Positions 29,767 to 56,126 are shown, numbered from the stretch's first letter. The stretch is 64,000 bases of DNA from Acutalibacteraceae bacterium (GCA_045657845.1 JAZOTY010000139.1:2830-66829); one strand, 5' to 3'. Notes: generated by a model from the letters alone, not told the origin. Program-made: numbers and translations.

Positions 29767-30232
29767 GAAAAACAGGGGAGGGGTCGCGCACGATCGCGTT
29801 CCGGAGAAAAGGGAGTGGTTCCTCCCGGCCGCAGTCGAACGCTTTTCTCCTCCGCTGAAGTACCCAAGTTGGTCTATTCACCTCAAAATCAGCCCCTAAA
29901 ATCGGACTTTTACGCGGACGAAAGTGCGATTCGTAAAGGCACGAAACTTTACGAAAACTGTTAAACGACTTTCCGCAAATCGCCGAAATGATTTTTCCAA
30001 AATGGAAAATTAGAGGAAAAATCCGTCAAAAGGAAGAAAAAGGCTTTACATTTTGCGGAATCTTATTTTCCAAATTCGAAAATTGGACCACTTTTTCACA
30101 TTTTCGACCGGGTTTTGAACGGGGGCAAGGTTTTGACCTTTACAGGCATGAACTGCGGAAATTTCCGGGGAAATCGTCCGTGAAACGGAGAAAAAAGAAA
30201 CGGCGAATTTGAGAATAATTTGCGGTAGATGG

Positions 30233-30260
30233 TTGACAATTATCGAAAAGCTACTATAAC
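30233..30260 (+). promoter_or_regulatory. Putative sigma-A promoter for acpP
   Basis: TTGACA (30233-30238), N16, TATAAC (30255-30260). Confidence 0.55.
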
Positions 30261-30304
30261 ATAAAAGTGTAATTTGAACACTGACCCCACAGGAGGATAC
30301 AACC

Positions 30305-45489: not shown

Positions 45490-46518
45490 ATGCCCGGAAG
45501 ATACAAGAAACTCGGTTTGAAAGACATCCGCTACAGCGGGAAATACATTCTGGCGAGCGTCATCGTCGAAGGTCTGCTCCTGGCCCCGAAGACCACCGTC
45601 CGGTGGCAGGGGAAAGAGGTGCAGATCGGCGGCATCATCCCGATGCTCCAGAAGGAGATCGCCGCGGGGATCCGCGACGGTCTGAACACGGTGCTGCCGA
45701 AAGCGGCGACGACGGTCGAGAACACGTTCCGCCAGACGCCGATCAAGGACGTCGCCATCGAGAAGATCCTCTGGTTCGTCTATGAATACATGAAGGACGT
45801 GACCCTGAACTCGCTCGTGACCGGCATCCTCGACCGCGCGAACCTGTCCGACACCATCAAGCTGGAAGGGCTGTTCCGCGACCGTCTGCAGGACGTCATC
45901 GACAGCAAGGACGACCGTGAGAAGCTGATCGCCGGACTGGCCGATTTCCTCATCCATACGGCCAACACCGTCTTTGCCGACACGTCCGTCGCCTCCTTCC
46001 TGAACGGCGGCCTCGGCGACAATGTGAAGGCGACGCTCGTCGACTATATCGACAAGGGGCTCGAGACGGAGCTCGGCAACACGGTCATCACCCGGGTCCT
46101 CGACGCGGTCGAGCAGTTCGAGACGCTGACCCTCGCGGGCTTCCTCGAGCGGTACTTCGACCTGCCCCGTCCGGCCTTTGAAAAGTTCCTGTCCGACACC
46201 TACGAGAAGTACCTCGGCACCCGGATGGTGGCCGACCTCTCGAACACCGGCCTCGGGGAACAGCTCTACACGAAGATCGCCGGCATGGATTACGATCAGG
46301 TCTTCCAGGACATCACGAAAAACCACTGGCGCGAGCTCGTCCAGGTGACGATGACGGCTGCCGGCGTCGGGATGTTCTTCCTGAACCGGTCGCGAAAAGT
46401 CGAGGCGAAACAGGAGAAAAAGACTGCGAAAAAGGCGAAGAAAGCCTATAAAAAGAGCAATAAAAAAGCCACTAAGGCAAACGCCAAAGCAGCGAAAAAA
46501 GCAAAGAAGAAAAAGTAA
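45490..46518 (+). CDS. Hypothetical protein with a C-terminal TM helix and a Lys-rich tail
   Basis: 342 aa with an AGAGGAG SD. Hydrophobic N-segment YILASVIVEGLLLA, a helical central part, a TM helix VTMTAAGVGMFFL and the tail KKTAKKAKKAYKKSNKKATKANAKAAKKAKKKK. Perhaps DUF445-like, but I cannot confirm this. Confidence 0.65.
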   Translation: MPGRYKKLGLKDIRYSGKYILASVIVEGLLLAPKTTVRWQGKEVQIGGIIPMLQKEIAAGIRDGLNTVLPKAATTVENTFRQTPIKDVAIEKILWFVYEYMKDVTLNSLVTGILDRANLSDTIKLEGLFRDRLQDVIDSKDDREKLIAGLADFLIHTANTVFADTSVASFLNGGLGDNVKATLVDYIDKGLETELGNTVITRVLDAVEQFETLTLAGFLERYFDLPRPAFEKFLSDTYEKYLGTRMVADLSNTGLGEQLYTKIAGMDYDQVFQDITKNHWRELVQVTMTAAGVGMFFLNRSRKVEAKQEKKTAKKAKKAYKKSNKKATKANAKAAKKAKKKK

Positions 46519-46616
46519 GACACCCAAAGAGTAAGATAGCCAAAGAGCAAGATGCCGGTGTTCCAACCGAATCGCTCGCCGGCACACCAAACTGCAATTC
46601 ATTTCAAATAAGCCAG

Positions 46617-46665
46617 AAGACCGCCGGTCCACCCGCAATTCGGTGCAACCGGCGGTCTTTTGACT
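46617..46665 (+). terminator. Probable terminator of the upstream gene; also the degenerate first unit of the 74-bp array
   Basis: 11-bp stem AAGACCGCCGG (46617-46627) / CCGGCGGTCTT (46649-46659), followed by TTGACTCTT (short U-tract). Confidence 0.5.
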
Positions 46666-46689
46666 CTTAAAGCTCTTTTGTCGCTCCAT

Positions 46690-47059
46690 TTACCGCCTGA
46701 TTTCCTGTTTTCGGCAATGCAGGCGGTAAGAATCAGAGTACTTTTCGGAGGGAAACGGCATTATTACCGCCGGTTTTCCCAAAGTAATAGAAATAGGCGG
46801 TAAAACAAGGGAAGGATTCTTCGGATCGCGCTCATATTTACCGCCTCTTTTCTCGATATCGAAGAATCAGGCGGTAAAAAGCCGGGAAAGCTCTTGATTG
46901 GACTCGCTTTTTTACCGCCGGTTTTCTCGATAATCGCAATCGCGGCGGTAAATCTCAGGAAAAGGACTTCGTTTTGCCTTTTCGATTACCGCCGGTTTTC
47001 GTGTTTCCGGCAAAAGAGGCGGTAAATGACGCTCTTTTTTGACGCCGGGGCTTCGTCGG
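46690..47059. repeat. Five tandem 74-bp units, each TTACCGCC-N24-GGCGGTAA-N34
   Basis: TTACCGCC at 46690, 46764, 46838, 46912 and 46986. GGCGGTAA at 46722, 46796, 46870, 46944 and 47018. The octamers and spacings are invariant; the interiors are about 50-70% identical. Confidence 0.95.
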
Positions 47060-47189
47060 AGGTCCACGGAGTCGGGGCAAAAAGCCCCTTGGTCCGGGAC
47101 CTGCGGCGCCTCCTCGCACCGGCTGAACGGTTCTCCCGGCAGGCCGAAGGGCACATCTGTCTTTTGGCCTGGTGTCTGCCCCACACAGC

Positions 47190-47247
47190 AGAAAAGGCCC
47201 TTGTCAAGACCGGCGGAAGCCGCCGCAGGGTAGCCTTGACAAGGGTC
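47190..47247 (-). terminator. Intrinsic terminator of the trmB / small-membrane-protein operon
   Basis: Arms GGCCCTTGTCAAG (47196-47208) / CTTGACAAGGGTC (47235-47247) enclose the inner hairpin CGGCGG-AAG-CCGCCG. The minus strand continues with CCUUUU. Confidence 0.65.
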
Positions 47248-47276
47248 TTTGAATGCTGTAATCAAGCTTTTTGAAA

Positions 47277-47360
47277 GGGAGAGTGTCAGCCTTTGTAATG
47301 GGAGTGTGGCAGCCTCCGCTGTGGAGACGCAGCCTTTGCAGTGGGAGAATGTCAACCCCG
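47277..47360. repeat. Four degenerate ~22-nt direct repeats (GGGAG-N(3-5)-CAGCC on plus; CUCCC-containing on minus)
   Basis: (G/T)GGAG at 47277, 47300, 47322 and 47343. CAGCC at 47287, 47310 and 47330, and CAACC at 47353. The last unit overlaps the stop codon at 47352-47354. Confidence 0.8.
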
Positions 47361-47699
47361 GAAATAAGGGTTTTCCTGCTTGTTGATCATGTAGCGGCCG
47401 ACCCAGAAGACGATCGCGAAGATCATGAGGCCGAGCAGGAAAAATGCGAACATGGCGCAGACGATCGAATATTTCCCATAGGGGACGAGATCGGTGACGA
47501 TCTGCGCGGACTCCCGCTGCGCGACGGCGAGGGAGTTGTAATAGCCCATCATCAGGAAAAACGTGATGTTCCCGACAAAGCCGGTGATGACGCTGATGAG
47601 CCAGTACAGGTGGCGGAACTGCTTCCAGCCGAGGATGTCCATGGCGACCGACAGGCCGACCAGGAGGATGAACAAAATAATGGGTACTGCGATGGACAT
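47352..47699 (-). CDS. Hypothetical small membrane protein (3-4 TM helices)
   Basis: The ATG at 47699 (AAGGAGGA SD) gives 115 aa, MSIAVPIILFILLVGLSVAMDILGW... It starts 22 nt after the trmB stop. Confidence 0.6.
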   Translation of the reverse strand: MSIAVPIILFILLVGLSVAMDILGWKQFRHLYWLISVITGFVGNITFFLMMGYYNSLAVAQRESAQIVTDLVPYGKYSIVCAMFAFFLLGLMIFAIVFWVGRYMINKQENPYFRG

Positions 47700-47720
47700 T
47701 TCCGTTCCTCCTTGCATTGG

Positions 47721-54566: not shown

Positions 54567-56126
54567 ATGAGTCTGAAATCTTCCGAAAAAATCGATACCA
54601 ATCTCTATGAGCTCGTCATCGACGTAGACGGCGAGACCTTCAACAATGCCATCAACCAGGCATTCCAGAAGCAGAGAAAGAACATCACCATCCCGGGCTT
54701 CCGCAAAGGGAAGGCCACCCGCGGCATGGTCGAAAGATATTACGGCGAAGGCGTCTTCTACGAAGATGCGTTCGAGATCATCTATCCCGACGCAGTCGAA
54801 GAAGCCGTCAAGGAAGCCGGCATCGAGATCGTCGACAACCCCTTCGACGTGGACTTCAAGGAAGTCGGCAAAGACGGCCTGACCTTCTCTCTGAAAGCTA
54901 CCGTCAAACCCGAAGTCGAGATCGGCGACTACAAGAGCCTGGAGCTCAAGAAGCCCATCGCCGAAGTCACTGACGAAGACATCGACGCGGAACTCGCTTC
55001 CATGCAGGAGCGCGGCGCCCGTTTCGTCGAAGTCGACCGTGAGGCCAAACTCGACGACATGACCGTCATCGATTTCGAAGGTTTCGTCGACGACGTCGCA
55101 TTCGAAGGCGGCAAGGGCGAAGGCTATGAGCTGACCCTCGGCTCCGGCCAGTTCATCCCCGGTTTCGAAGACCAGATCGTCGGCCACAAAGTCGGCGAGG
55201 AATTCGACGTCAACGTCAAATTCCCGGAGGACTATGTCGAAGAGCTCGCGGCGAAAGACGCGGTCTTCAAAGTCAAACTGAACGCCATCAAGGAGAAGCA
55301 GCTTCCGGAACTGGACGATGACTTCGCCATGGACGTTTCCGAATATGACACCCTCGACGAGTACAAAGAGCACATCAAAGAGGACCTCGCGAAGACCAAG
55401 GCAGACGCTGCCGAGGCAGAGGTCGACTCCCAGATCTTCGAGAAGCTGGCCGGCCTCATCAAAGCCGAGATCCCGGAAGTCATGTTCGAGCATGAAGTCG
55501 ACAACGCCGTCCAGGACTTCGGATATCAGATCCAGTCCCAGGGCCTCGACCTTCCGACCTACCTCGCCTACACCGGCATGACCGAAGAAGCCCTTCGCGA
55601 CAGCTTCCGTGAGCGCGCCGAGAACCAGGTCAAGGTCCGCCTTGCCCTCGAGAAGATCGCCGAGCTCGAGAAGTTCGACGTCACCGACGAAGATGTCGAC
55701 GCTCAGTACAGCAAGCTTGCCGAGCAGTATGAGATGGACATTGAGACCATCAAGAGCATCCTGCCGGCTGAGGATATCAAGAAAGACGTCTCCACGACCA
55801 AGGCTCTTGACATCGTCAAGGAGACGGCCACCATCACCGAAGTCGATGCCAACGACTTCATCGCAGAGTCTGTAGCGGAGAAGATCGAAGCGGCAGAGGA
55901 GAAGGCCGAAGAGAAGAAACCGGCCAAGAAGACCGCCGCCAAGAAGACGACCGCGAAGAAGGCGGACGACGGCGAGAAGAAACCCGCCGCGAAGAAGACC
56001 GCTGCCAAGAAGACGACCGCGAAGAAGGCCGACGACGGCGAGAAGGCACCGGCAGCCAAGAAGACCACTGCCAAGAAGACGACTGCGAAGAAGACCACCA
56101 AAAAGGCAGACGACAAGGCAGAATAA
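54567..56126 (+). CDS. tig: Trigger factor (with a ~90-aa Lys/Ala/Thr-repeat C-terminal extension)
   Basis: 519 aa with the ribosome-binding motif IPGFRKGKATR, a central FKBP domain and a C-terminal arm domain, then a KKTAAKKTTAKKADDGEK repeat tail. Confidence 0.93.
   Translation: MSLKSSEKIDTNLYELVIDVDGETFNNAINQAFQKQRKNITIPGFRKGKATRGMVERYYGEGVFYEDAFEIIYPDAVEEAVKEAGIEIVDNPFDVDFKEVGKDGLTFSLKATVKPEVEIGDYKSLELKKPIAEVTDEDIDAELASMQERGARFVEVDREAKLDDMTVIDFEGFVDDVAFEGGKGEGYELTLGSGQFIPGFEDQIVGHKVGEEFDVNVKFPEDYVEELAAKDAVFKVKLNAIKEKQLPELDDDFAMDVSEYDTLDEYKEHIKEDLAKTKADAAEAEVDSQIFEKLAGLIKAEIPEVMFEHEVDNAVQDFGYQIQSQGLDLPTYLAYTGMTEEALRDSFRERAENQVKVRLALEKIAELEKFDVTDEDVDAQYSKLAEQYEMDIETIKSILPAEDIKKDVSTTKALDIVKETATITEVDANDFIAESVAEKIEAAEEKAEEKKPAKKTAAKKTTAKKADDGEKKPAAKKTAAKKTTAKKADDGEKAPAAKKTTAKKTTAKKTTKKADDKAE
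55926..56110 (+). repeat. In-frame 66-nt tandem repeat (about 2.7 copies) encoding KKTAAKKTTAKKADDGEKKPAA
   Basis: Units 55926-55991 and 55992-56057 are near-identical, with a partial third copy. Confidence 0.85.

Follow-up and report, generated by a model that had tools for sequence, protein, structure and literature searches.

A tandem palindrome array of an Acutalibacteraceae bacterium as one copy of a dispersed, probably REP/BIME-like repeat of uncultured Clostridia

The stretch of DNA analyzed here, hereafter the window (64,000 nucleotides of an Acutalibacteraceae bacterium, GCA_045657845.1 JAZOTY010000139.1:2830-66829), contains a gene-free island with a tandem array of palindromic units, whose arms are invariant and whose interiors and linkers are not. 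We found that this array is one copy of a dispersed, non-coding and apparently mobile repeat of uncultured Clostridia, which is polymorphic for presence and absence and belongs to an undescribed family. As a descriptive class, it is in all likelihood a dispersed element resembling the repetitive extragenic palindromes (REP) and bacterial interspersed mosaic elements (BIME), an assignment that we hold much more firmly than any functional claim. With regard to function, its most likely mode of action is that of a BIME-like, phased protein-binding DNA array, a reading to which we accord a probability of about 0.45.

Architecture of the array

The window array comprises five exact TTACCGCC-N24-GGCGGTAA units, hereafter type B, repeated with a period of 74 bp (Table 1). 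The expected count of such units in shuffled sequences is 0.00, and the octamer, for which 0.94 occurrences are expected in the 64 kb, is found ten times, every one of them within the array. Thus, the periodic units and the confinement of the octamer to them, both of which had been reported in an earlier note made from the sequence alone, are borne out. The unit and linker lengths, respectively 40 and 34 nt, are kept without exception, and the centers of the two arms of a unit lie 32 bp apart, i.e., ~3 helical turns. Little else is shared: a multiple alignment of the units retains the arms only, with 16 of the 40 positions of the repeat being conserved, and the linkers are free in sequence though invariant in length. 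Tandem Repeats Finder left the array unreported in the window even at a score of 30, which fits interiors and linkers that have diverged too far for an ordinary tandem repeat.

The sixth, degenerate unit that the earlier note had placed upstream is real and is a true in-register member of the array. This type A unit, AGACCGCC-N25-GGCGGTCT, is followed by TTTT and has its dyad 71.5 bp from that of the first type B unit. The type B units are followed by A-rich sequence instead of a T-run, and both of their arms end in GTAA. Intrinsic terminators were rejected as the identity of the type B units, as the combination of a GC-rich hairpin and a T-run is seen only in the type A unit and in the type C units of relatives (see below). 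A protein-coding repeat was likewise rejected, given that 74 is not a multiple of 3 and that no open reading frame (ORF) spans the window array. ARAGORN reported neither a tRNA nor a tmRNA.

A dispersed family in uncultured Clostridia

A scan with the single unit over one genome per species returned, among the matches listed, singletons at chance level from unrelated taxa, together with tandem arrays from several metagenome-assembled genomes (MAGs) of uncultured Clostridia, which are fragmented. At least five lineages of uncultured rumen, gut and digester Clostridia have this palindrome arrayed at several loci in each MAG (Table 1), and the array-bearing lineages include JAFRHS01, JAAYBI01, JAFWPB01 and JAFTJD01. 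A MAG has at least 3 to 7 arrays, and a single metagenome sample yielded 11 stretches distributed over 10 contigs, amounting to tens of units. A metagenome scan for one-and-a-half units, allowing linkers of 15-45 nt only, recovered 77 stretches, nearly all from the 74-bp or the 83-85-bp lineage; hits with second gaps of 16 nt or 32-33 nt (L152/L157/L196, and L158 with its relatives) were left out, since they do not form tandem arrays of the present kind.

Every array examined is intergenic, whether the adjoining genes are convergent, tandem or divergent, and the neighbors are unrelated housekeeping genes. Clustering of the flanking ORFs for a recurrent protein family yielded only pseudo-ORFs running through the arrays and orthologous duplicates. 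The units are 40 bp long with arms of 8-11 bp, nearly every unit, whatever its lineage, keeps N24, and the same octamer is kept across lineages spanning 45-60% G+C. Units occur almost only in arrays and almost never on their own, and many arrays are situated at contig ends. A literature search for the octamers retrieved only primers and the like.

Several arm types coexist in one genome or array, namely TTACCGCC, AGACCGCC, AACCACCT, TACCGGCA, TTACCTACC and AATACATACGAA, each with a perfectly complementary partner. The earlier statement that the arms lack compensatory substitutions is, hence, correct inside the window and does not extend to the wider family, where these other complementary types are found and where one compensatory double change was seen inside a type B unit. 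Three arm types are joined into a single uninterrupted array in the islands of L130 and L139, both orthologous to the window locus: type A, which has AGACCGCC/GGCGGTCT arms and a T-run, type B, to which the window units belong, and type C, which has AACCACCT/AGGTGGTT arms and often a T-run. L130 contains 4 A + 4 B + 2 C units and L139 contains 1 A + 5 B + 5 C, with a dyad spacing of 70.5-75 bp throughout, including the four tandem type A copies of L130, which are 74-75 bp apart. Likewise, a Lachnospiraceae MAG contains arrays that display the same architecture (40 + 23 = 63) with TTACCTACC/GGTAGGTAA arms, and the final unit of these arrays carries TTACCGCC/GGCGGTAA.

Certain repeats that accompany or recall these arrays were recorded in their own right. 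The digester lineage also has a 2-kb stretch of tandem ATACCGGCAAAA-N16-TTTTGCCGGTAG units (L134 1470-3540) with periods of 74/75, 95 and 105, two linker types and a hybrid of them, and the translation of this stretch yields a spurious open frame of ~513 codons. Arrays of the 84-bp lineage (L028 5580-5819 (-), L075 4700-4830 (-), L034 2200-2320) have a G/T-rich tract, (GGTTGTGGCGTT)n, immediately upstream of them, which is preceded by a conserved GAGAATGGCT and would read (GCGV)n, a candidate small Gly/Cys-rich peptide; behind these arrays come two copies of a further hairpin unit, AATACATACGAAA-N17-TTTCGTATGTATT, 86 bp apart. An open frame and upstream mini-ORFs considered in this lineage did not hold up, and we read the frame as incidental. 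In L120 and L123, which belong to other Clostridia MAGs, the same arms form a lone perfect hairpin, TTACCGCCGAGAGTAACC-aaac-GGTTACTCTCGGCGGTAA, with a T-run behind it, and serve as what looks like an ordinary terminator. In the sheep-omasum MAG, a match to the Rfam RT-5 RNA (L066 7365-7480 (-), 73.6 bits) is located 5.4 kb from an array, with no evident link between the two.

Constraint on arms, spacing and period

Taken together, the sequence comparisons indicate that selection keeps the 8-11 bp arms, the 24-bp inter-arm distance and a unit period of whole B-DNA turns. Across 88 unique oriented units, 685 of the 704 arm pair cells are Watson-Crick, and the exceptions fall mostly at the outermost pair. 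Within the interiors, pairing rises above chance at positions 9-11 only, giving a stem of 10-11 bp and a center of 18-20 nt that is free in sequence and fixed in length. A hairpin extending beyond the arms was rejected, because the pairing at positions 9-11 scores equally with arms swapped in from other loci, which points to a conserved motif instead of covariation.

In the ortholog L079, ten out of ten octamers are identical to those of the window, with loop-plus-linker identity at 0.45-0.67 against a background of ~0.45. The closest ortholog, L130, diverges from the window by 11-18% at third codon positions, by 4.6% in the 3' domain described below and by 0% in the octamers (8/8); its non-arm array positions are ~32% diverged, an estimate derived from 74.9% identity over 307 aligned array positions after removal of the invariant octamers. 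The flanks of L130 are 94-95% identical to those of the window, yet its array is more different than that of the more distant L139, which argues for turnover or exchange of units besides point mutation. In a comparison of two subfamilies of the composite (see below), loops and linkers stand at ~0.45, i.e., at background, whereas the arms are identical, the 40 + 34 layout stays the same and the 3' domains share 84-91% identity. Hence, the proposal that arms and spacing are constrained while their surroundings have drifted is supported.

The period itself follows a rule. With every arm type and lineage pooled, the dyad-to-dyad distances of unique neighboring pairs have their peaks at 63, 74-75, 83-86, 95 and 105 bp, with almost none at 65-70, 89-93 and 101-104 and three pairs only at 77-82. 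Except for one class of 50 bp, the periods across lineages and arm types (53, 63, 74, 84, 95 and 105 bp) are whole multiples of ~10.5 bp, corresponding to 7 whole turns in the window and to 5, 6, 8, 9 or 10 elsewhere. Tested against whole multiples of a 10.0-11.0 bp repeat, 15 linker classes give P=5e-5 and 10 collapsed classes P=9e-4; the optimum lies at a repeat of 10.5-10.7 bp and a phase near 0, and a repeat of 11.0 puts the phase out by 0.3 turn. Thus, the helical phasing that the earlier note had suggested for the window array receives independent support from other lineages and arm types.

A composite with a conserved 3' domain

At five distinct loci (the window, L092/L199, L187, L147 and L184) the array is the middle part of a composite, which begins with a 5' region of ~35 nt ending ..TGTCGC..TCCATGAT, continues with 4-5 units of 40 + 34 nt and closes with a 3' domain directly after the last GGCGGTAA. 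The units are homologous by position, with diagonal values of 0.79-0.90 for units 1-4 of L187 vs. L147 and of 0.81/0.64/0.71/0.78/0.51 for the window vs. L139; this homology of same-ordinal units between paralogous loci implies that the composite spreads as a whole. Four or five further array loci (L076, L137/L155, L156/L192 and L172) possess the same units and partly the same 5' region, and beside these the 3' domain was not found or the contig ends first. In the window, the insertion between the last unit and the 3' domain shifts the frame, and hence the segment 47026-47039 is not coding.

The 145-nt domain (47040-47190) is a candidate for a new structured RNA, without a match in Rfam. Two of its pairs switch independently between U-A and C-G (5 and 4 of 9 sequences each), its G-U pairs on the + strand are invariant, and its folding energy is lower on the + strand in 7/7 copies. 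It evolves at ~1/3 of the rate of third codon positions. A covariance model of the domain recovered one copy in the window and none in other lineages, and of two patterns of it searched in viral contigs, one had no hit and the other a single hit by chance.

The locus in relatives

The convergent genes that the earlier note had placed on either side of the array, ending at 46518 (+) and 47352 (-), are upheld by their ORFs, by Pfam matches of their neighbors and by synteny conserved in eight relatives' loci. Upstream of the array come the genes for a radical SAM protein, a DUF2344 protein and the 342-aa protein; downstream, on the opposite strand, are those for the small membrane protein and TrmB. 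Relatives, retrieved through the 342-aa protein, keep the order PNPase, radical SAM, DUF2344, 342-aa protein, small membrane protein, TrmB and L19.

Against this conserved backdrop, the 830-bp island of the window is a recent, lineage-restricted acquisition, by insertion or expansion, at a place where relatives have a single bidirectional terminator of ~35 bp. Five syntenic loci with a protein identity of 51-92% show this empty site, with only 31-44 bp between the stop codons, and the array is missing at the locus in relatives whose flanking protein is <=92% identical; the array-bearing orthologs are L079, L130 and L139. In other relatives the same gap is filled by a different GC-rich insert of 125-170 bp, and strains with an identical flanking protein have a gap of either 37 bp or, with that insert, 160 bp. 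Such variation in its contents marks the convergent gap as a hot spot for small non-coding inserts. The GC-rich insert, ..GGGGAGGAGCGAGAGCGCCGCAGAGACGCTTGGGGGA..GGATGGCAAGTGGCTCGGCGGCC.., is itself non-coding (L209 4560-4745; L210 4540-4690; L212; L206 4530-4705) and is present or absent among strains that share an identical flanking protein. The hairpin downstream of the 3' domain (47198-47245) is locus-specific and lies outside the repeated composite; it is probably the terminator of the downstream (-) gene.

Table 1. Features of the array locus in the window, and arrays of the same kind in other lineages
Feature	Location	Strand	Remarks
Upstream flanking gene	45490..46518	+	ORF; 342 aa, Lys-rich tail, no Pfam hit
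Type A hairpin unit, AGACCGCCGG...CCGGCGGTCT	46618..46658	+	terminator-like first array unit, in register with the B units
5' junction (..TGTCGCTCCAT)	46659..46689	+	related to the conserved ..TGTCGC..TCCATGAT before paralogous arrays
Type B unit 1, TTACCGCC-N24-GGCGGTAA	46690..46729	.	palindrome
Type B unit 2	46764..46803	.	palindrome
Type B unit 3	46838..46877	.	interior most palindromic, 8/12 inner pairs
Type B unit 4	46912..46951	.	palindrome
Type B unit 5	46986..47025	.	palindrome, abuts 3' domain
Linkers, four x 34 nt	46730-46763, 46804-46837, 46878-46911, 46952-46985		span 46730..46985 includes units 2-4
Junction	47026..47039	+	13-nt insertion relative to paralogs
Conserved structured domain, ~145 nt (candidate RNA)	47040..47190	+	long irregular hairpin and second hairpin; at least five distinct loci
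Bidirectional terminator-like hairpin, CCCTTGTCAAG...CTTGACAAGGG	47190..47251 (hairpin 47198-47245)	.	absent from paralogous copies
Downstream convergent flanking gene	47352..47717	-	ORF; 121-aa membrane protein
Goat-jejunum Clostridia MAG JAFRHS01	L076, L079, L092		period 74 bp
Two anaerobic-digester 'Clostridiaceae' MAGs	several loci		period 84 bp
Sheep-omasum MAG JAFWPB01	at least 6 loci		three-hairpin composite; periods 72/73, 63, 50 bp
Mageeibacillus	L118		period 84/85 bp
Lachnospiraceae	L027		period 64 bp
Acetatifactor	L017		period 53 bp

The window has a few further repeats. A 16-nt tandem repeat, AAAGAGTAAGACACCC, of 2.7 copies (46510-46552) runs across the stop codon of the upstream gene, and a 23-nt tandem repeat, TTTGTAAAGGGAGAGTGGCAGCC, of 2 copies (47270-47315) lies between the bidirectional terminator and the downstream stop and is conserved in L130. 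A 519-aa ORF (54567-56126, +), trigger factor-like by eye and upstream of a probable ClpP gene, bears a C-terminal Lys/Ala-rich extension encoded by 66-nt repeats (AKKTAAKKTTAKKADDGEK..); the protein upstream of the array likewise has a Lys-rich C-terminal tail. Finally, an A/T-rich gene-free stretch of ~400 bp (29900-30290) with several TTTTCC/GGAAAA inverted repeats is found upstream of a probable acyl carrier protein gene.

How the array might act

Briefly, in the mechanism that we favor, the units would be read as double-stranded DNA by a dyad-symmetric, sequence-specific factor, which might occupy a single helix face and bind in a cooperative manner from unit to unit. The array would then be an architectural or topological DNA element, comparable to what has been reported for the BIME-2/REP325 of Escherichia coli with gyrase and HU. 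It might grow and shrink through the duplication or loss of whole 74-bp units, with units being exchanged or turned over faster than the flanks evolve. We prefer the duplex to other substrates because of the fixed distance between half-sites, the quantization of periods in helical turns and the lack of a promoter-like site in the island; further, the array comes just after a terminator, and in relatives T-run hairpins precede the 3' domain.

Several observations weigh against this proposal. The coexistence of several arm types cannot be accounted for by one DNA-binding protein, and hairpin formation is a simpler explanation of it; indeed, six complementary arm types and one compensatory double change argue for base-pairing, be it in RNA or in single-stranded DNA. 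The element is also polar and adjoins a domain with RNA-like covariation and G-U pairs. Half-site centers at a distance of 32 bp are unusually far apart for a simple dimer. As for the phasing, the linker classes were defined manually after seeing the data, with automatic clustering lumping nearly all of them together; the limit of 15-45 nt set on linkers in the metagenome scan bears on the period peaks; one real linker class, with a period of 50 bp or 4.76 turns, is out of phase; and the A/T periodicity inside the units is moderate only and not decisive.

The arrays might also be the DNA component of an as yet undescribed architectural system of gut Clostridia, a speculative and on balance doubtful extension. 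Paralogous dyad-symmetric factors, one per arm type, might assemble on one helix face of phased palindromes at 10-20 chromosomal sites, possibly with the participation of the 145-nt RNA, for which naRNA4 with HU at the E. coli REP325 provides an analogy; the element would spread as a unit and be hypervariable between strains.

The main rival, which we regard as rather improbable, is that the island encodes a modular non-coding RNA of ~0.5 kb on the + strand, composed of the 5' region, five 74-nt hairpin modules and the 3' domain, in which the five identical stems would be sites for an RNA-binding protein, as in a scaffold or sponge, or processing sites. The conservation between paralogous loci of the composite, with its 4-5 units and their position-specific homology, is in keeping with such an RNA, as are the two independently covarying pairs, the + strand G-U pairs, the better + strand folding and the slow evolution of the 3' domain. 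The whole region folds much better than its shuffles (z = -7.4), and ~80% of the E. coli REPs are transcribed, with the RNA of the REP325 cluster reported to be functional (PMC4550694). The minimum free energy fold, however, already pairs neighboring units, and identical tandem stems invite misfolding. Nor would an RNA give any reason for a fixed 24-nt loop or for periods quantized at ~10.5 nt. A consensus scan of the island found no sigma-70-like promoter, and the conserved 5' region, compared by eye with consensus sequences of sporulation sigma factors, did not fit them; the element stands just after a terminator, and in L130 and L139 T-run hairpins separate the array from the 3' domain. Among the arm mismatches, there is no excess of G-U over A-C (1 vs. 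3), counts that are too few to use. Arrays of other lineages lack the 3' domain, and Rfam 15 gave nothing near the gathering threshold in the window region (E up to 10) and nothing relevant at gathering score in 12 related loci. A CsrB/RsmZ-type sponge in particular was rejected, as there is no covariance-model match and the linkers of the L092/L184 subfamily have no GGA; thus, the linker GGA motif in which the earlier note saw a resemblance to sponge RNAs is not conserved in paralogous arrays.

We consider it unlikely, too, that the units are nothing but selfish hairpin DNA, akin to the REP doublets forming hairpins (REPINs) or to miniature inverted-repeat transposable elements, mobilized by a single-strand-specific HUH/Y1 transposase resembling the REP-associated tyrosine transposases (RAYTs), or by another transposase, encoded elsewhere. 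The arms would then be conserved for the enzyme, and the arrays would be by-products without a function for the host. Dispersal to unrelated intergenic sites, the empty sites and the rapid turnover between near-identical strains are what such an element would produce; many of its arrays are at contig ends, like repeats that break assemblies, and several complementary arm types coexist. Further, related ATACCGGC...GCCGGTAG units in L134 end in GTAG, the REP head tetranucleotide (PMC3733652), and tandem ordered clusters of REPINs are known (PMC3116915). Against these stand the GTAA, rather than GTAG, of the window units, their near-restriction to arrays, whereas singlets and doublets dominate REPIN populations, and the persistence of the same octamer in genomes of widely differing base composition. 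A Y1 transposase was found by tblastn neither in the window nor in ~1.3 Mb of array loci, which is weak evidence. An enzyme recognizing a hairpin would explain neither the fixed loop length nor the helical-turn quantization of the linkers.

A CRISPR-like or guide-encoding array is largely refuted: the constant segment lengths, the conserved domain at one end and the several arrays per genome with contents differing between close strains recall one, but few positions of the repeat (16/40) are conserved, the variable segments of one array are interrelated (e.g., the L092 units are 82-90% identical across BLAST pairs), and for the window array no match was obtained in phages or plasmids, nor does a cas-like gene adjoin it. 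A recent neutral tandem duplication, which the absence of the array from relatives with the same flanking genes would suit and to which the earlier note had tied such an absence, is refuted, for although that absence was found in part of the relatives, the arms are invariant family-wide, with interiors no more alike than background, and the same unit and spacing recur at many loci and in many lineages.

If the phasing rule that underlies the duplex-DNA reading stands up in an unbiased census, the arrays would constitute direct sequence evidence of a dispersed bacterial repeat being read as a duplex on one face of the helix, and would point to an unknown DNA-binding factor or factor family in abundant uncultured gut Clostridia. 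For Proteobacteria, REP-type elements have been studied well, for Bacillota hardly at all. On the practical side, the arrays differ between near-identical strains and, hence, might serve as strain markers; they also break assemblies, and the annotation of MAGs is likely to mistake them for ORFs or questionable CRISPRs.

Comparison with known systems

The sopC of the F plasmid and other tandem centromere or iteron arrays likewise consist of tandem short inverted repeats with a near-whole-turn period, to which protein binds cooperatively. However, they are single-locus and are found beside par or rep genes on plasmids and phages, whereas the window element is chromosomal and multi-locus with no such gene nearby. 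A plasmid or phage centromere or iteron array was, therefore, rejected: the neighbors are radical SAM, DUF2344, TrmB and L19, and the chromosomal loci are many. Moreover, blastn against phage and plasmid collections produced no match for the window array, and a scan of viral contigs with the unit yielded 13 singletons, about the roughly estimated chance level. The centromere-like or iteron-like role entertained in the earlier note is not supported, nor is any other role tied to the locus, given the dispersal of the element among unrelated housekeeping genes. A precedent for quantized yet variable spacing is provided by the ComK boxes of Bacillus subtilis, in which dyad-symmetric half-sites can be separated by 2, 3 or 4 whole helical turns; the ComK motif is an A/T-rich promoter element, unlike a dispersed tandem array.

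The REPIN clusters of Pseudomonas (Bertels and Rainey 2011) share with the element a short conserved pair in inverted orientation around a variable spacer, with the potential to form a hairpin, as well as ordered tandem clusters repeating the unit plus its flanks, within-genome populations and differences in presence and absence (PMC3116915). They differ from it in being mostly solitary, with clusters as the exception; they are also tied to a RAYT gene that has a matching cluster beside it, a gene of which the weak tblastn test found none here.

The REP/BIME elements, such as BIME-2 and the six-repeat REP325 cluster of E. coli, are short (20-60 bp) imperfect extragenic palindromes, whose tandem clusters are regularly spaced, count up to a dozen members, often stand at the ends of genes and mix different palindrome types, in all of which the window array is like them. 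Binding of architectural and topological proteins is reported for them, namely gyrase and IHF, along with Pol I (PMC2817692), and HU; they are also transcribed, and the REP325 RNA is reported to condense DNA together with HU (PMC4550694). Unlike the present element, they have a GTAG (or CGTC) head, which the window units lack; they alternate two compact GC-rich REPs, where here there is one palindrome per module with a non-conserved center of 18-24 bp; and they number in the hundreds (usually >100 per genome), where here at least tens of units, almost all in arrays, were counted in fragmented MAGs. The host is here a member of the Clostridia; a RAYT was not found in the window or in ~1.3 Mb of array loci by what is a weak tblastn test, and we did not find a helical-turn quantization of periods described for BIMEs in the literature. 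Membership in REP/BIME proper is, accordingly, not established. Nevertheless, the earlier remark that no described family has this architecture was too strong, for in the REP/BIME and REPIN clusters there is a known kind that comes close (PMC2817692, PMC3116915).

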